Below are positions 507 to 30,949 of a stretch of 32,000 bases of DNA, piece after piece (within the stretch, counting starts at the first letter, position 1; each line of letters opens with the position of its first letter). The notes under the pieces were generated by a model. It worked only from the letters and a program-made list of their open reading frames with translations. It was not told where the DNA came from and made no database searches. Origin of the DNA: Promethearchaeia archaeon. GTDB taxonomy: Archaea > Asgardarchaeota > Lokiarchaeia > Sigyniarchaeales > SOKP01. Where the stretch lies: contig JAWOFX010000186.1 of NCBI GenBank assembly GCA_046497275.1, forward strand, positions 1 to 32,000, read 5' to 3'. A program made the translations under genes and the position numbers.

Positions 507-1277
507 CTAATCTTGTTCTTCTGCTTCCTCTCTTCCCATTAATCTCATTACGGCGTCGGCAAGTTTATTCTGTCTTTTACTGGTGATTCCTTTAATCTTT
601 CCAACCTTTCCTAGAACTCTTTCCATGATCGCGTTCCACACAGACCCTGGCTCTCCTTTTACATCCATGAACCGATCTCGAAATACTTCAACACTAATAT
701 TTTCATAATTTTTAGCTGCTTCAGAACATTTAAAGCATAAAATGCATAAATCTTTATCCACTACTATTTCACCATCCTCGACTGAAAGCGCTCCGACAGC
801 ACATTCATCAGCAAACTCTTCAAGAACTTTCTTATCCTTTTCTTCGGATGTGATTTTTATGCTACCATCGACAACTTTTCTAACTTTGTTTCCATTTTCA
901 AGTGTTCTTACTTGCTCTTTAAATTTAGGAAGAGAGTCATTCTCCACAAGTGGGATTCTTTCTTCTCCGTTGATATAGAGTTTTAGCGTATATCCTGGAC
1001 AAACCCATGAACAGCTTCCGCACCAGATACAGCGCTCGGTATTAACGACGATTTTTTTATCCGAATCCATTTTCATTTCTTCTGGTGTACCGATTGCAGT
1101 TTTTTTGATCGGTTCATCGTAAATAGAAATCGTGACAGGACACACACGATGACAAAACCCACATTCCAAGCACTTCGATTCGTCATATTCGAGAATCATC
1201 TCGTGATTGAGCATCTTATAAACGTAATGGGTAATATTCTCGTCTACTTCGATAGTTTTTTTGGCTGGTAATGACAT
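507..1277 (-). CDS. Polyferredoxin (about 3 x [4Fe-4S]), FwdF-like
   Basis: CLECGFCHRVCP, CIWCGSCSWVCP, and a split third site (DECAVGA + CILCFKC). Confidence 0.8.
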   Translation of the reverse strand: MSLPAKKTIEVDENITHYVYKMLNHEMILEYDESKCLECGFCHRVCPVTISIYDEPIKKTAIGTPEEMKMDSDKKIVVNTERCIWCGSCSWVCPGYTLKLYINGEERIPLVENDSLPKFKEQVRTLENGNKVRKVVDGSIKITSEEKDKKVLEEFADECAVGALSVEDGEIVVDKDLCILCFKCSEAAKNYENISVEVFRDRFMDVKGEPGSVWNAIMERVLGKVGKIKGITSKRQNKLADAVMRLMGREEAEEQD

Positions 1278-9867: not shown

Positions 9868-10143
9868 CTTTTTTAACACCAAATTTATTAGATTTTTTAT
9901 TAGATTTTGAGTTTTTTAATAAAAAATTAAAATTATTGTTGTTAATCATTATTTTTGATACAGAACCTAATAAATTTTTTTTTAATGTTTAATAATCCAA
10001 ATAAATTTTGACAGAACTTTTGGTTGTACTTTATTTTCTAAAAATTTTTAGCTCATTAAAATTACTTATAAGGAAGAGATCTTTATAAAACCTGATTTAA
10101 ACATTAATACAATGAAAAATAAATATAAAAAAAGATAAAAAAA

Positions 10144-11292
10144 CTACGTTTTCTCTAATTCCATCTCTCTAATTGCCTTACCACTTCTAAATGGGGTATC
10201 TTCAACCGATTCTCCTGCGCGATACTTAAATTCCTTTTGAAACTGCTCATTTAGAGACTGAAAAATTAGCGAAAGTGGTATATTCATAGGACAATTATTC
10301 GCACAATTTCCACATTCTACACATCGATCAGCAACATGGGCAATGCGCGTTAACTGATAACTTACATTATCAATATTTTTTTCCTTCCGCTTTTTCTGAA
10401 GGATACAATCGACGCAATAACATACTGGACAGCCCCTAATACACATTCCGCACATAGTGCATTTCTGAAGCTGTTCCAGTTTTTCCTTTTGAGATAATTT
10501 ATTCCATTCTTCGAGATCCTTCGCTCGTTTTTCTTCTGCAGTCTTAAGAATCTCAGCCATTTTGTCTTCATGTGCTTTTTTAATATCACTTGGTAGTTTT
10601 TCAGCCTTAATTCCTGATTTATCGATTAATTCGCCTGCAGCATCACTATGAACTTTTAAGATAATATTTTCATCTTCAATAGGAATTCCAATATCACTAA
10701 TAGAAATGTCTGCGATTATAGGTTGCTTTCGAATACATCTCGAGCAATTATCAGCAATTTCGATTCCTACTTGTTTTGTCTTTCCATCATCAAGTAAAAA
10801 TAATAATCCATCATCCGTGATTTTCTCCTTTACGATTTTTGTGGTATCAAGATCCTTCTCGCTTCGAAGTTCCCGTGAGACATTTAATGTCATTCCGCGA
10901 TCTTCAATTCCAATGATAAATAAGTTATCTAAATTCACTTGTTTTATTTTGCTCAATTCTATTAATGCTCTTGTATCGCAAGGTCGAGCTATTAAAGCGA
11001 TTTTCTCATTTTTCGCTCCATCTGCGCTTGCATGTAAGAATTTAGAGGCAGAATCCGTTCGGGCGTATCCATAGGTAATTAAATTAGACACGGGAAAACT
11101 TTCAATCTCCTCGGGTTTTTCCCATAATTTTGGAGAGATTGAAAATCGATCTACTTCACCGGATTTTTTACTTACTTTTACTTCTGCGCCGATTATTTTA
11201 TCAACCATTCCCTCTTTCAATAAGGTCTTTAACAATGTAGGGAAGTCTTTTTCTTTTATGAGATATTCTGCTTGTGTTTCCACAGCTTTCAA
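10144..11292 (-). CDS. FdhB/FrhB-family (F420-binding beta-subunit-like) protein with C-terminal 2x[4Fe-4S]
   Basis: ARPCDTRALIEL, CSRC, CTMCGMCIRGCPVCYCVDC and RCVECGNCANNCP; TTG start. Confidence 0.75.
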   Translation of the reverse strand: MKAVETQAEYLIKEKDFPTLLKTLLKEGMVDKIIGAEVKVSKKSGEVDRFSISPKLWEKPEEIESFPVSNLITYGYARTDSASKFLHASADGAKNEKIALIARPCDTRALIELSKIKQVNLDNLFIIGIEDRGMTLNVSRELRSEKDLDTTKIVKEKITDDGLLFLLDDGKTKQVGIEIADNCSRCIRKQPIIADISISDIGIPIEDENIILKVHSDAAGELIDKSGIKAEKLPSDIKKAHEDKMAEILKTAEEKRAKDLEEWNKLSQKEKLEQLQKCTMCGMCIRGCPVCYCVDCILQKKRKEKNIDNVSYQLTRIAHVADRCVECGNCANNCPMNIPLSLIFQSLNEQFQKEFKYRAGESVEDTPFRSGKAIREMELEKT

Positions 11293-11430
11293 CTCGTAAT
11301 CTTTATAATTTTATAATTTTGAAAAATAATTTATGGTGAGAAACATAAATTCTTAGTTCATATACGTTTCGTTTCTATTATTTTCCAATTTGATTTTTTA
11401 TTTTTTAATTTTATTAAATACTTTATGTGT

Positions 11431-11502
11431 TTAAATGGGGCTTCCATTTCTTCAACAAGATTCTCATTTTTTCAACCTTGTCTCATTAGGACACACATTT
11501 AA
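11431..11502 (-). promoter_or_regulatory. SECIS element, eukaryote-like (AUGA / apical A-run / GA)
   Basis: Minus-strand RNA: UUAAAUG..CCUA-AUGA-GACAAGGUU-GAAAAAAUGAG-AAUCUUGUU-GA-AGAAAUGG..CAUUUAA. Contains a 9-bp upper stem (two G.U), an A6 loop, a tandem G.A core (11483-11486 / 11452-11453) and a 7-bp lower helix. Starts 2 nt after the stop of a UGA-containing gene. Confidence 0.9.
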
Positions 11503-11504
11503 TT

Positions 11505-11924
11505 TTATGAGGAGCTTTCTTTTAAAGGATTTCCACCCAATCCTTTAATAGTATTATAGAATTCTGTGGCTACTTCTTTAAACCTTGCGCCTTCAGCAGA
11601 ACTGCAAAATTCCATTCTAAGTCTCTCAGGTGCGATTCCTGCTGAATTTAACACATCTTTTAGATATTCTACGCTACGATACGCAAATTTATTTCCTGTC
11701 TCGTAATCACACTCTCCTGGATGTCAGCCGACGATTAATACCCCATCAGAACCCCTTCCGAATGCGCGCATAACAAGATCTGCTCCAACTCGTCCGGTAC
11801 ATGGAACAATAATTATTCTATATGCTGTTGGATATTGGGCGCGAATTGTGCCTGCCATATCAGCTCCTCCGTATCCTCATTTTCTACAACAAAATGCGAT
11901 TATCTTAATTCCATTATTTGTCAT
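11505..11924 (-). CDS. mvhD: Selenocysteine-containing MvhD/VhuD ([2Fe-2S] hydrogenase delta subunit), 139 aa, 2 Sec
   Basis: Absent from the ORF track. IAFCCRK-U-GYGGADMAG (TGA 11877-11879, codon 16), CTGRV, GVLIVG-U-HPGECDY (TGA 11724-11726, codon 67), ERLRMEFCSSAEG; ends TAA at 11505-11507. Confidence 0.95.
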
Positions 11925-11931
11925 TTTATTT

Positions 11932-11936
11932 ACCTC
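11932..11936 (-). promoter_or_regulatory. Shine-Dalgarno GAGGT for mvhD in the 13-nt hdrA-mvhD gap
   Basis: TAA-AGAGGTAAATAAA-ATG on the minus strand. Confidence 0.7.
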
Positions 11937-11937
11937 T

Positions 11938-13896
11938 TTACTCTGCAATAGGTAGTAATGCATCAATAAATGCATCATATTGATTATCTTTATAATGTGC
12001 TAATTCTATAGCTTTTGAAGGACACAAGGATTCACAAATTCCGCATCCTCTACAGCTAATGATATCCACTTCTATTAAGTTTTTTCCATTGATTGAAATC
12101 GCACCGTAAGGACATGCCTCAACACATTTATAACATTTCGCACATCGTTCATCATTTGGTTGAGCTCGAATTAGCTCTATTATGTATTCCTCGTTTTTCA
12201 TCGGGATACTTGCTTCAGAGGCTGCTCCTTTTGCTTGACTTACCGTAAGGTCTATTGATTTTTGGGCTTGACAAGAACCCGCAATATAGATTCCCGGAGT
12301 TTTTGTTGATATGGGATCTAATCGTGGATGTGCTTCTTTTAGAAAGCCATCCGGAGTCTTTTCCAAATTCATCACTTTAGCAATTTCATCTGTACCTTTA
12401 GATGGAAGTGATGCTGAAGAGAGTATCACCATATCAAATTCTTTTTCAATGATTGTATCTGTTCCCACCGGTTCTAATTTAACTATGAGATTTTTTGTTT
12501 CGGGATCTTCTTGTATATCTCCCACCATTCCTTTTACAAATAATATGCCTTGATTTCGTGCCCGCCGATAATATTCTTCATACATCTTACCACCAGCACG
12601 AATATCTATATAGCATACCATTATCTCAGAATCGGGATACTCTGATTTGATAAGCTTGGAATTTTTTATCGAAAGATTGCAGCACACCACGCTACAATAT
12701 TCATGTGTTTTTAAACTTCTCGATCCCACGCAATTAATGAAGAGTATCCTTTTAGGTCGTTCTCCATCAGATGGTCGTTTTAAATGTCCTAGTGTTGGTC
12801 CGTTTGGTGCGATTATTCGTTCCAATTGTACTTGTGTTATAACGTTATCATATATTCCATACCCATAATCATCTCCTTGGTAAAGATCCCAACCAGTTGC
12901 AATTATTATTGTTCCTACTTCTAACTCAACAATTTCATCTTGTTGACTAAAATCAATCGATTCATTATCACAAGCGTCTACACATGCAAAACATTCTACA
13001 CATGAATCTCGTTCAATGTTAGAAATTGCAGGAACTGCTTGCGCAAATGCAATATCAATACATTTTCGAGCAGAAAGGTTCTCGTCAAAATAGTTTGGCA
13101 CATATATAGGACATACATCAGTACAAGATCCGCACCCAGTTCAAAGTGTTTCATTAACATATCGCGCTTTGCGTTTTACTTTCACGTTAAAATTCCCAAT
13201 ATATCCATCTACATCTACAACTTCACTATATGATAAAATTTCGACGTTTTTATTACGCTCAACTTCTAGCATTTTAGGTCCCAAGATTCAGATACTGCAA
13301 TCATCAGTTGGAAATGTTCTATCAAGTTGAGCCATTCTTCCTCCTATGGTAGTCTCTTTCTCCACTAAGTACACTTTATATCCCTCATTTGCTAAATCTA
13401 GTGCAGCATTTATTCCCCCAATTCCACCACCGATTACTAGAGCCTCTGGTTTTACGGATACTTTTTTCGTTGGAATATCTTCTAATAACCTAGACCTTCC
13501 AATACCTGCTTTAACTAATTCAATTGCTTTCTCTGTTGCCTCCTCTCGTACATCGGGATCTTGATGAACATAAGAACATTGCTCTCTTATATTAACAAAT
13601 TCAAGATGTCTTGGTGGCAAACCTGCTTCTTTCAAAATATCCATAAATACTGGTTCATGAGTAAGAGGAGTTCAAGCTGCTAAAACTATTCTATCAAAAC
13701 CTTTTTCTGCGATCTGTTCTTTCATGAATTCTGCGCCACCAGACGTACACATGTTTAGATATTCGTATGCGTTTACATTCTCTTCTTTATCAATCTCTTC
13801 GACAATCTTCGGTACATCGAGTATTCCTGCCACGTTTACACCTCAGCGACAGATAAAAGCTCCTACGTTTTCCTTGGTCTGTTCATCATCAGACAT
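11938..13896 (-). CDS. hdrA: Selenocysteine-containing heterodisulfide reductase subunit A, 652 aa, 4 Sec
   Basis: One frame joins track ORFs 13288-13644 and 11938-13101 plus upstream sequence. FICR-U-GVNVAG (TGA 13843-13845, codon 18), LAA-U-TPLTHEP (13672-13674, codon 75), FPTDDCSI-U-ILGPKM (13288-13290, codon 203), ETL-U-TGCGSCTDVCP (13141-13143, codon 252). Also GGGIGG FAD motif, CVGSR, YCSVVCC and C-terminal 2x[4Fe-4S]. Confidence 0.95.
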
Positions 13897-13997
13897 TTTT
13901 CTCACTCTTAGAAAGTAATACCTCCTAATATCTTGAGATTTACTTGTTTTTGATTTATAATTATTATTAGTATTTATTTTAATTGGTAAAATTAAGA

Positions 13998-21499: not shown

Positions 21500-22063
21500 T
21501 TAGCTTTCATATTCTTCAAGTTGCTCGGAAAAGAGACGCTTAACTGCCTCAATCCTGGTTTCCTCTCCAATTTGTTCAACATTCTTGAGTGATATGGCTT
21601 CTTTTGGACACACAGCGATACATTGTGGCTCAGGCTCTCCTACTTCAGGATCTATGAACTCTTCTCGCATATTTTCACATAAATCACACACAAGTGCTTT
21701 CTGTGTATTTATATTAAGTGAAATAACACCGAAATCGCATGCTCTTATACAGAATCCGCACCCATTGCATTTATCCTCATCCACAATTATGCTTCCTGTG
21801 GCATCATCTTGCTCTAGTGCTTTTTCGGGGCAACTTCGAACACATGGTGAATCTTCACATTTTTGACACGCTAATGCGATATTGAACACCGGTTCGATAC
21901 GTACTCTATGAATTCTAGTATTGATAGGGTTAAAAGTCCCTTCATGAACAAAAGAGCATACACTTTCACAAGTTTCGCAACCAGTACAGAGATCTGGATC
22001 AACCATTATGAATTGATGCATCCTTCCGCCTCTTTTTTTAGTCTTGGATCTTGCAGTAGCCAT
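21500..22063 (-). CDS. 4 x [4Fe-4S] electron-transfer subunit associated with AOR
   Basis: CTGCETCESVC, CQKCEDSPCVRSCP, CNGCGFCIRAC, CDLC...CIAVCP; 3 nt downstream of aor. Confidence 0.9.
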   Translation of the reverse strand: MATARSKTKKRGGRMHQFIMVDPDLCTGCETCESVCSFVHEGTFNPINTRIHRVRIEPVFNIALACQKCEDSPCVRSCPEKALEQDDATGSIIVDEDKCNGCGFCIRACDFGVISLNINTQKALVCDLCENMREEFIDPEVGEPEPQCIAVCPKEAISLKNVEQIGEETRIEAVKRLFSEQLEEYES

Positions 22064-22066
22064 TGG

Positions 22067-24001
22067 TTATTTTTTCCCCCCTTTTTTCTTTGGTGGTTCT
22101 AAATTTCCAATAACAAAATCCAAACCCAAACTTTTGAGAGTTTCTTCAGTAGGAATACCTGTTTCTGTATCCCATCCTCGAGCTTCATAATACCCACTCA
22201 ATAATTTTTGATATCCTTTTTCCTCTAGGGTTACTCCTTTAGCAGGTCCTTTAGTATGTGCTTCTTTGAAGAATCGCTCAGGAGGATGGTCATCTGCTCT
22301 TGTCCATCCTTCACGGATATTAAAGCACTTCGATAAGGTTACTATTGCATTTCCTCGTTCTTTCATAGAATCTCCAGTATGAGGGATGCCAGTTACTAAT
22401 TCATAGACTTTCGCCATCTCATCATCATCCTCATAGACTCCACGAGTGAATTTACAAATAATATAGGAATCAATAACGGCATAGATATCCTCTACATCAA
22501 TTATTGCGTTTCCTCGTTCAACGGGTTTATCATAGGCAAACCTATCAAACTTTCCTTTAGCATCAAGTCCATAAGCTCCATTTCGTAAGTGGCACGCTCC
22601 GCGAATTGAAACACTCTCTCCCACGGCAAAAGAAGTCATGCCATGAAGATCGAATGCAGGCATTTCCAATCCTTTAATATTCATTGCATGAAAACTAGCA
22701 TTTTCGCGTCCCATTTCTTCTAAACGTTTTCCTGCCATTAAAGTTCCATCACCAAAAACTTCCCCAGCAAAACCCTCTCCTCGTATCATCTCTTCGGTAA
22801 ATCGGACTAGATTTTTTGTAGAGCCAAATGGTAATTCATATCCCAAGTCTTTTTTAGTGATAATTCCCTCTTCAAATAAATCACACGCCATAGCCGCAGT
22901 AACGCCACCTGATATTCCATCAATGCCTAAATCATCACATAATTCAATACATTTAAACACAGTAGGCCAATCAGCATTACCACAAGCTGTACCAAAAGAA
23001 TATAAAAGTTCTATATCTGTACTTGCAACTAAATTTGGATAATCAGGATGGTTTTTTGATACTCTTGCTAAATGATCGCAAGCAACGGAGCATTGAGAAC
23101 ATGCTACTTTCTTTACGACCCAATCTTCATTAAGAGTTTCTCCTGTATACTCACCATTCGTTATTTTTTCCCAAGTGCCCTCCTTATAATTATACGTGGG
23201 CATCATTCCAAGTTTATTATAACTCGTAAGTCCAGCTGGGGTTCCTAAATCTCGATATTTCGAAGTTGCAGGTCCGTTAGCAACTTTAATTAGTTTTTTA
23301 GCTAATTGATAAAATTCTTTAGGTTTTGCTACAGAAATAGGTTTCGTGCCTCTAAAGGCAATAGCTTTTAGGTTTTTGGAGCCCATTACCGTTCCCATAC
23401 CAGTTCTACCCGCCTGACGATTTCGATCATTAGTGATACATCCCAATCGACTCATCCTCTCTCCACCGGGACCGATTGCCATCACAGCTAATCTTTGATC
23501 TTGAAATTCTTCTCTTAGTATTTCTTCTGTATCCCAACATCCCTTGCCCCACAATAAATCTTCGCACGACATGCTATATCTATCATCATCATCCACAACA
23601 AATACAACCGGTTCTGGTGCTTTACCCTTAAAAACTATCATATTAACACCAGCACGTCTTGCTTGGGCACCAACTGATCCCGAGGAAATAGACATACCGA
23701 ACATATTTGTTAGAGGTGATTTTGCAAACACACCATATTTTGAACTTGTTGGTAAAATGGTTCCCGGAAATGGACCTATTGCCCAAACGAAAATATTATC
23801 AGGACTTAAAGGATCAATACCTGGTTCTAATTCATCCCATAATACTTTTGCTCCAAAACCATAACCACCTATCCAGTTTGCGAGAAAATCATTTGATAAT
23901 TTAGTTTCTGTTATCTTTCCCGTAGTTAAGTCGACATCGAGTCTTGTCTGCGTGTAACCCTTTACTTCATCTGGAATTGTTAAATTTTTTGCTTCGGTCA
24001 T
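22067..24001 (-). CDS. aor: Tungsten-dependent aldehyde:ferredoxin oxidoreductase
   Basis: AGRTGMGTVMGSKNLKAI, CSQCSVAC, CDDLGID, RGACHLR, YYEARGWD. ATG 24001 is preferred over GTG 24013 because a GTGTGA SD-like motif lies upstream. Confidence 0.93.
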   Translation of the reverse strand: MTEAKNLTIPDEVKGYTQTRLDVDLTTGKITETKLSNDFLANWIGGYGFGAKVLWDELEPGIDPLSPDNIFVWAIGPFPGTILPTSSKYGVFAKSPLTNMFGMSISSGSVGAQARRAGVNMIVFKGKAPEPVVFVVDDDDRYSMSCEDLLWGKGCWDTEEILREEFQDQRLAVMAIGPGGERMSRLGCITNDRNRQAGRTGMGTVMGSKNLKAIAFRGTKPISVAKPKEFYQLAKKLIKVANGPATSKYRDLGTPAGLTSYNKLGMMPTYNYKEGTWEKITNGEYTGETLNEDWVVKKVACSQCSVACDHLARVSKNHPDYPNLVASTDIELLYSFGTACGNADWPTVFKCIELCDDLGIDGISGGVTAAMACDLFEEGIITKKDLGYELPFGSTKNLVRFTEEMIRGEGFAGEVFGDGTLMAGKRLEEMGRENASFHAMNIKGLEMPAFDLHGMTSFAVGESVSIRGACHLRNGAYGLDAKGKFDRFAYDKPVERGNAIIDVEDIYAVIDSYIICKFTRGVYEDDDEMAKVYELVTGIPHTGDSMKERGNAIVTLSKCFNIREGWTRADDHPPERFFKEAHTKGPAKGVTLEEKGYQKLLSGYYEARGWDTETGIPTEETLKSLGLDFVIGNLEPPKKKGGKK

Positions 24002-24050
24002 TTCTATATTCACACTTAATTATTGGTTCTAGTTTATTAAAATATTTATC

Positions 24051-26234: not shown

Positions 26235-27344
26235 TTATTTTGATTTTCTAGAAATCATTTTCCTGAAGAAATTCTTTCTTTTTTCTCTCCAATCAGTCTC
26301 TTTATCTCTGGGAGGGATATATTGATCAATATATTTTTGTGATAATAAAGTCTCTATCAATTTTTGCCCTGGTTCCGTTCTGGTAATAATTATCGAATAA
26401 TTTTCCGGTGCACCTGTGGATCCTACACTTATATCAGAAAATCTACCAGCAAAATCATCACAGACTTTGCAATGGGATCTTACAGCAGGGTCTAAATTCT
26501 TAATATTAACTTCTAAGGTATCACCTTTCTCACTTTCAACAAAAAAGTTCTTCTTTATATATGTTTTTTTAATATCTGAAGGTTTTATTCCTTTATCCTT
26601 CCTTATTAACTCATAAAGCGTGGAATACTCAAAGTTTTCAAAACAGAATAAACTGATAATATATTTGACAACATGAGCAGGTTTTATACTGAGCAATTTC
26701 ATTTTCCTTAAGGCTTTTACTTGACAAGGCGTTCCTACAAAAGCCACACGGATTTGGTCAATGTCATAAATACCTTTTTCTTTTTGAATTTGTAAGGGAA
26801 TATTGTACAAGTCTTTTAATGGTAAAACTTGACTAGATATAGAATATCGTGTTCCGGCAGATTTTAAGAGTTCCTCTTTGTCAAATATTAATTTTGGTTT
26901 TGGGTGAAGTTCCTCATCATATTCAGAAACAACAGCAGCATCGATTTTATTTTTCTCGAATAGATAAGATAAGATAGTAGTAACTATTCCTCCATCTTGT
27001 CCAACCTTATTTATTGCTTCTCTTGTTGTTTTTGCAGCGATTATATCAATTATATGCCCTAATTCATCTTGTATTTCAAGATTTTCGACTAATAATTCCT
27101 CCAACGTGTCTGTTTGAGGACAAATATAATAACAAAGTCCACATTCTGTGCAATTATCTTCATTTTTTTTTGATTTGAATTTAGGAATATATTCATCTAA
27201 CTTAATCACATCAAAGCTTTGGCTTTCACAATAAGCTACACATGCCCCACATGCGCAACATAAATCTTTTTGAATTACTTCCTTATCTAAATCTTTAAAT
27301 GTTTTTACTTCCTCTTGCTCACTATTAGATAATGATTCTGTCAT
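26235..27344 (-). CDS. Coenzyme F420 hydrogenase/dehydrogenase beta-subunit family protein with N-terminal 2x[4Fe-4S]
   Basis: CCACGACVAYC, CTECGLCYYICP, QDGGIVT, AGTRYS, VGTPCQ, CFENF, CKVCDDF, DISVGS. Confidence 0.88.
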   Translation of the reverse strand: MTESLSNSEQEEVKTFKDLDKEVIQKDLCCACGACVAYCESQSFDVIKLDEYIPKFKSKKNEDNCTECGLCYYICPQTDTLEELLVENLEIQDELGHIIDIIAAKTTREAINKVGQDGGIVTTILSYLFEKNKIDAAVVSEYDEELHPKPKLIFDKEELLKSAGTRYSISSQVLPLKDLYNIPLQIQKEKGIYDIDQIRVAFVGTPCQVKALRKMKLLSIKPAHVVKYIISLFCFENFEYSTLYELIRKDKGIKPSDIKKTYIKKNFFVESEKGDTLEVNIKNLDPAVRSHCKVCDDFAGRFSDISVGSTGAPENYSIIITRTEPGQKLIETLLSQKYIDQYIPPRDKETDWREKRKNFFRKMISRKSK

Positions 27345-27353
27345 TTTTTATCC

Positions 27354-27818
27354 TTATTCCTTTTTTAGTTCAATCTTTCCAAATTTTTTGGGAAAAGATG
27401 AGGGACCTAAATTTGAAATAATCTCATTAAATTCCCGTATTAATTCAGCAAATTGTTTTCCTTCACTAGCTGAAATCCATTCTAATCGAAATCTATTAGG
27501 ATTAATTCCTATTTTTTTCAATAAAGTTTTCATATGATTCATTCTTTCTCTTGCTAATTCATTACCACTAATATAATGGCAATCACCGATATGACATCCT
27601 GTAACTAAAACACCATCTATACCATTTTTAAATGCAGTTAAAATAAATGAGGGTTCTACCCTTCCTGAACACATCACTCGTACTATTCTGATACTTGGAG
27701 GATATTGAAATCTTGAAACTCCCGCTAAGTCTGCTCCGGCATAAGAACACCAGTTACAGCAGAAAACTAAAATTTCTGGAAGAAAGGCTTCTTTCTCTTT
27801 AATTTTTGTTTTACTCAT
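27354..27818 (-). CDS. mvhD: MvhD, all-cysteine form
   Basis: FCCNWCSYAGADLAG, MCSGRV, GCHIGDCHY, WISASEG. Confidence 0.95.
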   Translation of the reverse strand: MSKTKIKEKEAFLPEILVFCCNWCSYAGADLAGVSRFQYPPSIRIVRVMCSGRVEPSFILTAFKNGIDGVLVTGCHIGDCHYISGNELARERMNHMKTLLKKIGINPNRFRLEWISASEGKQFAELIREFNEIISNLGPSSFPKKFGKIELKKE

Positions 27819-27847
27819 TATTAATTTAATCCCTCAAATATTGGATA

Positions 27848-30800
27848 TTATTCTAAATTAATGCCTGGTAATAATTCAATCTGTTTTCTAATCTGAAAAT
27901 TACTGAAATGTCTCTGATTAATAGCCCCTAATGGACATTCAGCCGCACATGCCCCGCATCCTTTACAGAGTGCTTTAATTACATGTGCTTTTTTCTCATT
28001 GACAGTATAAAGACCAATCTGTTTAGTAATTTCTAACATTTCTATCGCATTGTAAGGACATATCTCTGCACATGCACCACATCCTATACATTTCTCCTCA
28101 TTCACATAACAAGTTATCCCCTCCGTCTCGACTTCTCCTTTAACCATTAAAGAAGCGGCTCTCCCGGCAGCTCCATATGCTTGTGTTATTGCTTCATCTA
28201 TCCATTTTGGCCAGTGTGCTCCGCCACATAAGAAAATCCCATCAGTTGCAAAATCAACTGGACGAAGTTTAACATGAGCCTCCAAAAAGAATCCATCTTT
28301 AGTGGTAGGGACTTTAAGCATTTTAGCGAGTTCATTAGTTCCCCTCCCCGGAATTTCAGGGGTTGCAAGAACTAATAGGTCTGTATCATATTCAACTTCA
28401 CAATTCGCACCAAGATTATTATAATTTATGTGAAATGCTCCATTATTCTCTGAAATCGTTATTTCTTTGATGGATTTATATCTTTCAAAAGAAACTTTTT
28501 TCCTTAAATCACGCCATAATCGCTCAGCATTCAAGTCAGAAAATTGTAATTCTCTATATAGAATATGGATATGTGCTTCTGGATTGATATCCAAGAGTTT
28601 TTCAATATTTTTAAGCGCTACTTTACAACAAATATTACTACAATAGGTTTTTATAGTCTCACCTTGATTAAATTCATTCCGTCTTTGATCCACACATAAT
28701 ATAATTGTAGCATCATTAAAACCTGGTACTTTTGTATCTTGCGTAGCTTCTAATTCATTTTGAGTGAAAACTTTATTTGGATGCTTTTTAATAGCATCTT
28801 TCCATCTATCTGTATCTGATTGACTAGTTCCCGTAGCCACAATGATAGTTCCAACTATGAAATCAAAAGTGTCTGATTCATTTTGGACATTTTGGGTTTT
28901 AATTTCATAATTTCCTACGTATCCGGTTATATCTGTGATTATAGAGCTCGTTAATAAATGAACATTTGATTTTGTCTTTAAATCATTAATATCCTTCAAA
29001 ATATCTTGTTTATGCATAGGAATATCATATAAATCAATGAATTCTAAAGAATTCCCTCCTAAACTTGGCTTTTTCTCAACAAGATATAATTCAAATCCTT
29101 GATTAGCAAGATTATGAGCTGCCACTATACCAGCAATTCCGCCACCTATTATCATAGCTGATTTTTCAACCTTAACTTTGATTTTTTCAAGAGGTTGAAG
29201 ATTAACGACTTTAGCCAAATACATTCTGATTAAGTCGCAAGCTTTTTTAGTCGCTTTTTCAGGCTCATTATGGTGTACCCAAGAATCTTGATCTCTAATA
29301 TTAACCAATTCAAATAAAAATGGATTTAATCCAGCTTCTTTTAAAGTATTTCTAAATAATGGTTCATGAGTTCTTGGAGTACATGATGCTACCATAAATC
29401 TATTTAATTTATATTCTTTAATCATTTCCTTGATTCTCTCTTGAGAATCCGAACTGCATGAATACATATTTTCTTCGGCATGTGTTACATAAGGAAGCTT
29501 AGAAACATAATCAACCACCGCTGAAGTATCAACAACCCCCGCGATATTTATTCCACATTGGCATACAAGAACACCTACTCTTGGTTCATCATCTATACCT
29601 ACAGGAATTTCTGGGGGATAAACAACCTCTTTTATATTATTAAATCTAACGGGATTGAGTTTTTCACTTATTTTGGCGGCGCAAGCACTTCCCTCAGCAA
29701 CCGCTACAGGTATATCTTTTGGTTTCCTTGAATAACCAGTAAAAAATATGTTATTTTCTTCTGATTTAATCAATCCCTCTTCATTAATAAAACCAAATTC
29801 ATTATAGTCAACATTAATGCAATCTAATAAATCATAATAAGAATCATTTGGAAATAAAGCACTTGCTAATACAACCATATCATATTCATCATTTTCAACT
29901 TTATTTTTATCAATATCTTCATAAAATAAAGTCAATTTACCATTTTGCGGATTCTCCTTAACCAAGGAAACTCTACCATTAACATAATTTACTCCGTATT
30001 CCTCTTTACTTTTTACTATAAATTCATAAAAATTCTTACCTTTTGCTCTTATCTCTGTATTGAATATAGCACATTCAGTATCTGGAGCATGTTCTTTAGC
30101 CACGATTGCTTGTTTAGCAGAGGACATACAACAAATTGAAGAACAATATTTTTTACAATCTGGATGATGGAAATCTCGCGATCCAACACATTGTAGAAAA
30201 GCAATCTTATGAGGATGTTTTTTATCATCGAAACATATTAATTCTCCACCTGTTGGCCCATTAGCAGATAATAATCTTTCAAATTGCATACTTGAAAGAA
30301 CATTTGGATTTGAACCCGCCAGTAGAGAATAAAACTCTGGGTACTGCTGTTCATAACCAGTGGCTATAACGATCGCTCCAACATTTATATCAATTTCTTT
30401 GGGTTTTTGAGTGAAATCAATCGCGTCTGCTTTACACCCTGTAGCACATAGTTTACAAATTCCATGATTCAAATAAAGACATTTGTTTTCATCAATTAAA
30501 TAGATTGGAGGAACTGAAGAGGGAAATGAGATATGAGCAGCACTACGAGTAGTTAAGTGAGCATCAAATTCACTTGGAATTCCTTTTACGGGACAAATTG
30601 TAGCACAATCTCCACAACCCTTACATTTTGTCTCATCAACATACCTTGGTTTTCGAATTACTTTCACATTATAATTTCCAGCCGTTCCATTAATTTTTTC
30701 TACATGTGAATAGGTTAGTAGCTCAATATTAGGATTTCTATATACTTCCACCATTTTTGGAGCTAAAATACACAAAGAACAATCTAACGTAGGAAATGTC

Positions 30801-30949
30801 TTATCTAATTGTGCCATTGTACCTCCAATTGTAGGCTTTTTTTCTACTAAGTATACTTTAAACCCTAATTCAGTTAGATCTAAAGAAGTTTGGATACCCG
30901 CTATACCAGCACCTATCACTAGAACGGAACTTGATAATGCTTCTGTCAT
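27848..30949 (-). CDS. hdrA: Large two-module HdrA-family flavoprotein, all-cysteine form (1033 aa)
   Basis: Two FAD motifs (GAGIAG, GGGIAG), FPTLDCSLC, CKGCGDCATICP, CVGSR, internal VCQCGINIAG / ASCTPRTHEP, C-terminal 2x[4Fe-4S]. Confidence 0.93.
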   Translation of the reverse strand: MTEALSSSVLVIGAGIAGIQTSLDLTELGFKVYLVEKKPTIGGTMAQLDKTFPTLDCSLCILAPKMVEVYRNPNIELLTYSHVEKINGTAGNYNVKVIRKPRYVDETKCKGCGDCATICPVKGIPSEFDAHLTTRSAAHISFPSSVPPIYLIDENKCLYLNHGICKLCATGCKADAIDFTQKPKEIDINVGAIVIATGYEQQYPEFYSLLAGSNPNVLSSMQFERLLSANGPTGGELICFDDKKHPHKIAFLQCVGSRDFHHPDCKKYCSSICCMSSAKQAIVAKEHAPDTECAIFNTEIRAKGKNFYEFIVKSKEEYGVNYVNGRVSLVKENPQNGKLTLFYEDIDKNKVENDEYDMVVLASALFPNDSYYDLLDCINVDYNEFGFINEEGLIKSEENNIFFTGYSRKPKDIPVAVAEGSACAAKISEKLNPVRFNNIKEVVYPPEIPVGIDDEPRVGVLVCQCGINIAGVVDTSAVVDYVSKLPYVTHAEENMYSCSSDSQERIKEMIKEYKLNRFMVASCTPRTHEPLFRNTLKEAGLNPFLFELVNIRDQDSWVHHNEPEKATKKACDLIRMYLAKVVNLQPLEKIKVKVEKSAMIIGGGIAGIVAAHNLANQGFELYLVEKKPSLGGNSLEFIDLYDIPMHKQDILKDINDLKTKSNVHLLTSSIITDITGYVGNYEIKTQNVQNESDTFDFIVGTIIVATGTSQSDTDRWKDAIKKHPNKVFTQNELEATQDTKVPGFNDATIILCVDQRRNEFNQGETIKTYCSNICCKVALKNIEKLLDINPEAHIHILYRELQFSDLNAERLWRDLRKKVSFERYKSIKEITISENNGAFHINYNNLGANCEVEYDTDLLVLATPEIPGRGTNELAKMLKVPTTKDGFFLEAHVKLRPVDFATDGIFLCGGAHWPKWIDEAITQAYGAAGRAASLMVKGEVETEGITCYVNEEKCIGCGACAEICPYNAIEMLEITKQIGLYTVNEKKAHVIKALCKGCGACAAECPLGAINQRHFSNFQIRKQIELLPGINLE

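Follow-up and report, generated by a model that had tools for sequence, protein, structure and literature searches.

The window analysed here, the first 32 kb of the 39-kb contig C124 (GenBank JAWOFX010000186.1) of a Promethearchaeia archaeon, carries a triad of minus-strand genes at 10144-13896 that encode HdrA, MvhD/VhuD and an FdhB-like protein. A preliminary description of this DNA had noted the triad and read it as a possible F420-linked, electron-bifurcating or -confurcating unit; the three genes are confirmed, and Pfam and structure matches agree on their identity. The triad is real and strictly conserved, but the earlier idea of an F420-driven unit probably does not hold for it. Our analysis defines a selenium-dependent HdrA-MvhD-FdhB-like unit, the third subunit of which is probably an iron-sulfur (Fe-S) adaptor, and names candidate partners: a polyferredoxin, an aldehyde:ferredoxin oxidoreductase (AOR), and VhuAG-HdrBC supplied in trans. 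We consider it moderately probable that the selenoproteins HdrA and MvhD form the core of a bifurcating or confurcating complex, with the FdhB-like protein as adaptor, further partners in trans and a disulfide other than that of coenzymes M and B (CoM-S-S-CoB). The host genome comprises 3.85 Mb in 188 contigs, with 30% G+C, and is 98.9% complete.

Translated with the standard code, the region yields one open reading frame (ORF) of 382 residues plus fragments. When TGA is read as selenocysteine (Sec), the minus-strand fragments join into hdrA and mvhD/vhuD, separated by 13 nt (Table 1). Relatives were collected by a pattern scan in which each species was represented by a single genome; it gave 80 loci, nearly all titled as Asgard metagenome-assembled genomes (MAGs), of which 77 have upstream sequence and could be assessed for gene order. 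In all 77, hdrA, mvhD, a spacer and the FdhB-like gene follow each other on one strand, across 62-82% identity. The spacer measures 190-260 nt (1.5 kb in one locus). Beside the triad, none of the 80 loci has an hdrB, hdrC, mvhA, mvhG or FdhA gene in the same orientation. Close FdhB-like orthologues (above 500 bits) are limited to the window's own GTDB family, where 39 of 45 genomes have one. One cluster in a distant Asgard family contains a polyferredoxin, HdrA, MvhD, an FdhB-like protein, an HdrD-like protein (Fer4 plus two CCG domains) and a further HdrA.

The HdrA of the triad has Sec at codons 21, 78, 206 and 255 (UGA at 13843-13845, 13672-13674, 13288-13290 and 13141-13143). It aligns over its full length with HdrA of M. 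wolfeii (5odc_A, E 2e-205), and all four Sec residues, which occupy ligand-type positions, coincide with conserved cysteines, U206 with Cys197. GGGIGG at position 159, DCSIU at 202-206 and four CxxCxxCxxxC motifs are present; the domains are an N-terminal Fe-S domain, a thioredoxin reductase-like domain for the flavin adenine dinucleotide (FAD) that bifurcates electrons, and two 2x[4Fe-4S] ferredoxin domains, one inserted and one at the C-terminus. Judged by its sequence, the protein is an HdrA of the canonical type. Cys197 of HdrA is reported to complete the N-terminal [4Fe-4S] cluster of the partner subunit. Sec 21, 78 and 206 align with N-terminal-domain cysteines or with Cys197, a placement that would allow several selenolate ligands on one predicted HdrA cluster. 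Full-length HdrA proteins from 77 related loci have two or three Sec, at the same positions as in the window.

MvhD/VhuD has Sec at codons 16 and 67 (11877-11879 and 11724-11726), and relatives with a complete mvhD have two Sec at the same positions. The protein matches all 123 positions of the PF02662 (FlpD) profile, with 155 bits, and the NCBIfam VhuD model at 140 bits, under its 215-bit exception cut-off. The host genome has a tRNA-Sec. Its two matches (49.4 bits; G000:C33:11-129 and G000:C165:63-181) both lie at contig ends and are 119 nt long, against 91 positions in the model, which suggests an insert or intron plus an unresolved repeat.

The only selenocysteine insertion element for all six codons begins about 19 nt past the mvhD stop. 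It opens with AUGA and a 9-bp stem; an A-rich loop of 11 nt, the other arm of the stem and GA follow. PMC4989117 describes the lokiSECIS as a 9-bp stem preceded by AUGA and followed by GA, with an apical loop of 11 nt that starts with a run of A; the hairpin at 11452-11486 has all of these. The pattern recurs in the spacer between mvhD and the FdhB-like gene in 67 of the 77 related loci, with compensatory changes in the stem. An Rfam search with the element returned no family and a single spurious match to a long non-coding RNA, at E 0.8. Further along the spacer, a Shine-Dalgarno-like GAGTTGG is conserved in relatives 10 nt 5' of the FdhB-like start; it agrees with the GTG at 11283, which is also consistent with the orthologues, and points to a leadered or polycistronic mRNA. 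A fixed TATA box was sought before the FdhB-like gene and not found: the spacer is evenly A/T-rich, and the Shine-Dalgarno-like motif is the only conserved one. On the 3' side of the gene, 9883-10150 has no stable structure (z +0.83).

The FdhB-like protein, the nearest named relatives of which come from Promethearchaeota and Lokiarchaeota MAGs, matches subunit M of 9t1s at E 1e-37 and ElpB of the Elp-Hdr complex (8rvu_E) at E 3e-29, or 3e-39 by profile search; profile searches gave better values for 9t1s_M, 7bkb_E and 8rvu_E, down to E 1e-46. An AlphaFold2 model of the protein has FdhB (7bkb_E) and ElpB (8rvu_E) as its top fold matches, with template modelling scores of 0.67-0.71, the score for ElpB being 0.67, followed by FrhB-type F420 subunits. 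From these alignments and folds, the protein is identified as a true homologue of the FdhB and ElpB subunits of solved Hdr complexes. In Pfam, it matches FrhB_FdhB_C weakly (32 bits) and a 4Fe-4S dicluster domain; neither FrhB_FdhB_N (PF04422) in Pfam nor frhB, FpoF or FdhB in NCBIfam gave a match.

Comparison with FrhB suggests what this protein has kept and what it has lost. In FrhB, the FAD pyrophosphate is bound at the N-terminus of the first helix, where a conserved GG is among the family's most conserved regions; a loop with Lys75 and Tyr76 lies against the flavin, cysteines 104, 134, 192 and 195 hold the adjacent cluster, and the loop with S209 and V210 contacts F420, as does the IGKGK turn (Mills et al., PMC3591093). 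Our comparison rows for canonical sites include a Methanobrevibacter FdhB and the FrhB of a second, all-cysteine cluster in the window (the Cys cluster; the triad is the Sec cluster). At the first helix, the canonical (Q/E)xGG(I/A)V is EKDFPTLL in the window protein, with DF or FP in place of GG. The flavin loop AG(S/T)x(H/Y) is FPVSNL, with the loss running as FP(V/L)SN. The basic F420 turn, D(K/R)GK in canonical proteins and IDKGK or IDRGK in FdhB and ElpB, reads ITDDGLL, and the loop after CxxC, which has small residues and is GWSTVIV in FrhB-type proteins, reads ENIILKV. The second Fe-S ligand, canonically in NCGG or FC, falls in EDRG, with Asp131 in its place. These differences are invariant or nearly so in 15 FdhB-like orthologues, and the protein has neither the FAD-site nor the F420-site motifs of the FrhB family. 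Three of the four ligands of the FrhB-type cluster are retained (C105, C183 and C186). FdhB and ElpB have three more [4Fe-4S] clusters besides this one. Fourteen cysteines are invariant in the 15 orthologues, including those of CxxCxxCxxxCPxCxCxxC and CxxCxxCxxxCP, which should be enough for a C-terminal 2x[4Fe-4S] domain, a CPxCxCxxC cluster and the three remaining FrhB-type ligands.

A quick maximum-likelihood tree (IQ-TREE, with SH-aLRT support) places the FdhB-like protein in a clade with 98% support, in which 12 of 12 rows lack both the GG and the second cysteine. Further proteins without GG surround this clade in the tree, and the FdhB group with GG, to which the Methanobrevibacter FdhB belongs, stands apart from it. 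We infer that the FdhB-like protein kept its Fe-S wire and lost the flavin/F420 site. With the FAD and F420 motifs gone and a separate, motif-less clade, oxidation of F420H2 by this protein appears unlikely. The protein has no Sec, so direct expression and tests for flavin and F420H2 oxidation are feasible.

This bears on the reading closest to the preliminary description, in which the FdhB-like protein would oxidize F420H2 at a flavin and feed MvhD and HdrA, as in Elp-Hdr. That complex is a proven precedent (PMC12350162), its ElpB and the FdhB of the other solved Hdr complexes are homologues of the protein, and the host has genes for F420 biosynthesis (CofH/G, CofD and two CofE) as well as Mtd, with no Frh-type hydrogenase found in the genome to reduce F420. 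All four FAD/F420 signature positions diverge throughout the clade, however, together with the change of a nearby Fe-S cysteine to aspartate, and no ElpA-like gene lies in the cluster. The Cys-cluster FrhB scores 135-201 bits on the models that the FdhB-like protein misses. We regard an F420H2-driven triad as unlikely. The F420 link, if there is one, fits the canonical FrhB of the Cys cluster much better: its QDGG, AGTRY, TPCQ, FC and CxxC..DISVGS motifs are intact, and its best matches are 8rja_E and 8riu_B, F420-reducing Fmd/CODH subunits (E 4e-50). The tandem HdrA of the same cluster has two complementary halves.

The preliminary description had found no hdrB, hdrC, mvhA, mvhG or fdhA in either cluster; none of these genes lies in the window, and C124 has no CCG domain (HdrB/D-type) and no NiFe large subunit. 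Genome-wide, there are 43 CCG matches in more than 20 frames and two NiFe large subunits. Each of the latter sits in an mvhG-mvhA-hdrC-hdrB locus without hdrA or mvhD (G000:C44 ~70000-74300, L101; G000:C100 ~67600-71900, L100), and about 12 HdrA paralogues in the genome are candidate binders for these subunits. Of the condition that the preliminary description set against its own reading, hdrBC or mvhAG encoded elsewhere and co-purifying as a conventional complex, the first half holds with these two loci, and a conventional complex could assemble in trans. A small Sec-containing vhuU (RCYDCULSCAAH) lies between mvhA and hdrC in the C44 locus; in the C100 locus, the two genes are 40 nt apart, with no vhuU. 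MvhD paralogues also number about 12, and four HdrA-MvhD pairs are selenoproteins. An array on C100 (G000:C100:33000-52000, L099) starts with hdrC, hdrB and two partial hdrA genes, continues with two tandem copies of a unit of a 1003-residue fused HdrA and a 256-residue MvhD-like protein, and ends with MvhD, an FdhB-like paralogue (27% identity), two ORFs and FrhB. At G000:C44:137972-140094 (L103), mvhD is followed by a FwdF-like polyferredoxin and then, where the contig ends, by apparent fwdD and fwdB genes. Gene order here ties MvhD to formylmethanofuran dehydrogenase, which is reminiscent of the Hdr-Fmd supercomplexes of methanogens.

McrA, ComA and ComD were not found in the genome, at its 98.9% completeness; CoM-S-S-CoB is therefore an unlikely acceptor. 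The earlier proposals of a non-methanogenic host and of a high-potential partner other than CoM-S-S-CoB are both supported by this result. Overall, the interpretation in the preliminary description is partly supported. The F420 genes and the Elp-Hdr precedent agree with it, while the Sec-cluster protein lacks the motifs for F420; hdrBC, mvhAG and cof genes exist in the genome, and an fdhA candidate scores below its cut-off.

That candidate, a Mo/W bis-pterin enzyme of 650 residues (C124:32687-34639; L018 1788-3740), is encoded just outside the window, 1.7 kb past the Cys cluster and divergent from it. Its position on the same contig as the triad would suit a formate-linked reading, in which an FdhA-like enzyme such as this one would join the FdhB-like protein in trans to give an Fdh-MvhD-HdrA complex. 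The enzyme scores 243 bits on the NCBIfam Fdh-alpha model, for which the cut-off is 666 bits, and has SICTKSGHK around the candidate active-site cysteine, where formate dehydrogenases have C/U-H. Both relatives with contiguous Sec and Cys clusters lack an orthologue of the enzyme, and homologues elsewhere are only 27-31% identical; we rejected it as a conserved partner for lack of an orthologue in those two genomes. Across the 80 loci, no molybdopterin enzyme neighbours the triad in its own orientation; two loci have one upstream on the opposite strand. We regard a formate-linked complex as very unlikely.

The Sec and Cys clusters belong to one conserved nine-gene order with a tungsten AOR and two polyferredoxins, which is new here. 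In the loci L052 and L087, the nine genes are contiguous: tandem HdrA, MvhD, FrhB, AOR, its four-cluster ferredoxin (Fd187), HdrA, MvhD, FdhB-like protein and polyferredoxin. The window keeps this order on the minus strand, from 30949 down to 507, with three insertions of unrelated genes. Directly upstream of hdrA, an AOR orthologue (76-80% identity) plus the ferredoxin is found in about 28 of 55 assessable loci; the other AOR paralogues of the host genome are at most 33% identical. In 29 of 76 loci, the next gene downstream of the FdhB-like gene is a polyferredoxin orthologue (76% identical), in many relatives at a distance of 50-95 nt; the window has its copy 8.9 kb off, in the same orientation. 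L057 (544-3297) and about 17 other loci encode a 917-residue fusion of 2x[4Fe-4S], GltD-like Fer4_20, pyridine-nucleotide disulfide oxidoreductase and CCG domains. Its gene often sits upstream of the AOR-HdrA region, a few kb away, and the protein could be an HdrD-like partner linked to NAD(P)H.

This gene order could mean that AOR, Fd187, HdrA, MvhD, the FdhB-like protein and the polyferredoxin form one assembly, in which the tungsten AOR would be wired through polyferredoxins to the bifurcating flavin, much as Fmd is to Hdr in methanogens. The specific AOR and the polyferredoxin as neighbours, the persistence of the order in the window despite its insertions, and the use of the polyferredoxins MvhB and FmdF in the Hdr-Fmd precedent all speak for such an assembly; set against them are the partial adjacency, spacers of about 250 nt that suggest separate transcription units, and the fact that aldehyde oxidation already reduces ferredoxin without bifurcation. 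We judge it quite unlikely. Equally doubtful is a wider version in which the whole nine-gene island would encode a selenium- and tungsten-dependent supercomplex that connects aldehyde/acid chemistry and F420 to bifurcation or confurcation, wired through polyferredoxins and with a non-CoM disulfide as the high-potential partner. If true, it would be the Asgard counterpart of the methanogen Hdr-Fmd supercomplex.

In the explanation that we favour, the FdhB-like adaptor would carry electrons between ferredoxin-type partners and the HdrA/MvhD arm. The likeliest of these partners are the genes' products on either side of the triad in relatives: the FwdF/VhuB-like polyferredoxin, and AOR with its ferredoxin. 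HdrBC, or else a CCG protein of the HdrD type, would supply the high-potential arm in trans, and VhuAG the hydrogenase, plus VhuU in the case of the C44 locus; the two mvhG-mvhA-hdrC-hdrB loci are the candidate sources. Because these loci have no HdrA or MvhD of their own, assembly in trans of a Vhu-Hdr-type complex is the parsimonious baseline. The two loci mirror the split arrangement noted for Lokiarchaeota (PMC4989117). The complex may run in the confurcating direction in a fermenting, syntrophic host, as in the proposal for the cultured relative MK-D1, in which Mvh-Hdr acts as a confurcating hydrogenase (PMC7015854).

Several observations weigh against this explanation. The model of the FdhB-like protein is of moderate quality (predicted local distance difference test score 74.6) and poor in the C-terminal Fe-S part. 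The loss of the flavin is deduced from motifs and model scans, and an invariant YGYARTDSASK(Y/F)LH segment in the orthologues makes a divergent flavin site possible. The association of the protein with HdrA and MvhD is a prediction from homologues and synteny. The AOR/ferredoxin and polyferredoxin genes are adjacent to the triad in about 40-50% of loci, and insertions break this adjacency in the window. Co-occurrence of the FdhB-like protein, MvhA and CofH was compared in 61 genomes of the family and 201 of the phylum; the test does not discriminate, since the genes are near-universal in the family (39 of 45, 54 of 61 and 54 of 61, respectively) and the MAGs incomplete. Some family genomes have the FdhB-like protein with no MvhA found (one of them at 99% completeness), and six have MvhA without an FdhB-like match, so no strict co-dependence is demonstrated.

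These six genomes would also be expected if the FdhB-like protein were a mere conserved neighbour and HdrA-VhuD served a conventional Vhu-Hdr solely. Two further observations point the same way: the spacer of about 200-250 nt between mvhD and the FdhB-like gene, which could hold a separate promoter, and the 39-42% identical FdhB-like homologues that stand alone, with no HdrA nearby, in genomes of the same taxonomic order. The invariant order and orientation in the 77 loci, the physical docking of the homologous FdhB and ElpB on HdrA and MvhD, and the retention of the triad with an HdrD-like gene in a distant lineage argue against it, and we hold an absence of any coupling to be extremely improbable.

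Table 1. Coordinates of the features discussed, given as positions in the 32-kb window.
Feature	Coordinates	Strand	Details
hdrA	11938..13905	-	655 aa, GTG start at 13905; alternative ATG at 13896
mvhD/vhuD, [2Fe-2S] connector subunit	11505..11924	-	139 aa, two UGA=Sec
lokiSECIS core	11452..11486	-	with lower helix spans ~11431-11502
FdhB/ElpB-like iron-sulfur protein	10144..11283	-	379 aa, GTG at 11283; alternative TTG at 11292 (382 aa)
Polyferredoxin, FwdF/VhuB-like	507..1277	-	256 aa; best NCBIfam matches FwdF and VhuB
Tungsten-type aldehyde:ferredoxin oxidoreductase (AOR)	22067..24013	-	648 aa; AFOR_N, AFOR_C
AOR four-cluster ferredoxin subunit (Fd187)	21500..22063	-	187 aa; Fer4_11
All-Cys cluster, whole	26235..30949	-	tandem-fused HdrA, MvhD, FrhB; Pfam matches
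Tandem-fused HdrA (Cys cluster)	27848..30949	-	1033 aa
MvhD (Cys cluster)	27354..27818	-	154 aa
FrhB, canonical F420-type, N-terminal 2x[4Fe-4S] domain (Cys cluster)	26235..27344	-	369 aa

Hdr-type bifurcating modules in non-methanogenic Asgard archaea are an open point in metabolic models of the archaeal ancestor of eukaryotes, which involve hydrogen dependence, syntrophy and 'reverse flow'. Our literature search, which left most subscription journals outside its range, returned no paper that links ElpB or this FdhB-like gene to Asgard archaea. Among characterized systems, the methanogen complex Elp-Hdr comes closest (ElpABC-HdrABC, from Methanothermobacter marburgensis; Nomura et al. 2025, PMC12350162; 8rvu). 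It shares with the triad an FdhB homologue, an MvhD homologue and HdrA, and both are without a hydrogenase and an active formate dehydrogenase. In Elp-Hdr, ElpB binds FAD and oxidizes F420H2, and electrons pass through the clusters of ElpB and of the HdrA N-terminus to ElpC/MvhD, whereas the FdhB-like protein described here lacks the flavin/F420 motifs. Elp-Hdr, which reduces heterodisulfide and ferredoxin with F420H2, also has ElpA, a truncated FdhA; the triad neither contains nor adjoins a gene for such a protein or for an FdhA-like one, be it in the window or in the 80 loci. Other differences are that no hdrBC adjoins the triad, that its host is not methanogenic, and that HdrA and MvhD are multi-Sec selenoproteins.

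The HdrA-VhuD tandems of Lokiarchaeota are the same gene pair as in the window, with up to six UGA codons served by one lokiSECIS 3' of vhuD, as here; the two papers that describe them (Mariotti et al. 2016, PMC4989117; Huang et al. 2024, PMC11227280) assign the pair to Vhu-Hdr and, in the text examined, do not treat the third gene; the terms 'FdhB' and 'FrhB' do not occur in PMC11227280. Anaerobic methanotrophic archaea (ANME) and Methanoperedens (Chadwick et al. 2022, PMC9012536) resemble our host in that HdrA paralogues outnumber hdrBC and some clusters have FdhB without FdhA. Their fused HdrA of about 1000 residues has complementary halves like that of the Cys cluster, in which the order of the halves is reversed. 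The FrhB/FdhB paralogues of these organisms, which use CoM and CoB, are discussed as F420-reactive, while the FdhB-like protein of the Sec cluster lacks the F420 site.

In both the Fdh-Hdr and Elp-Hdr complexes of methanogens, FdhB or ElpB is the subunit that docks on the HdrA/MvhD arm (PMC12350162), and in Fdh-Hdr-Fmd of Methanospirillum hungatei (7bkb) this arm is mobile. Compared with the latter complex, there is no FdhA partner or Fmd in our cluster, and the neighbouring pterin enzyme, the possible link of which to the triad comes from gene order, is a tungsten enzyme of the AOR family. In the Mvh-Hdr-Fmd complexes (PMC13580544), the polyferredoxins FmdF and MvhB carry low-potential electrons; the conserved neighbour of the triad is a polyferredoxin like FwdF and VhuB.

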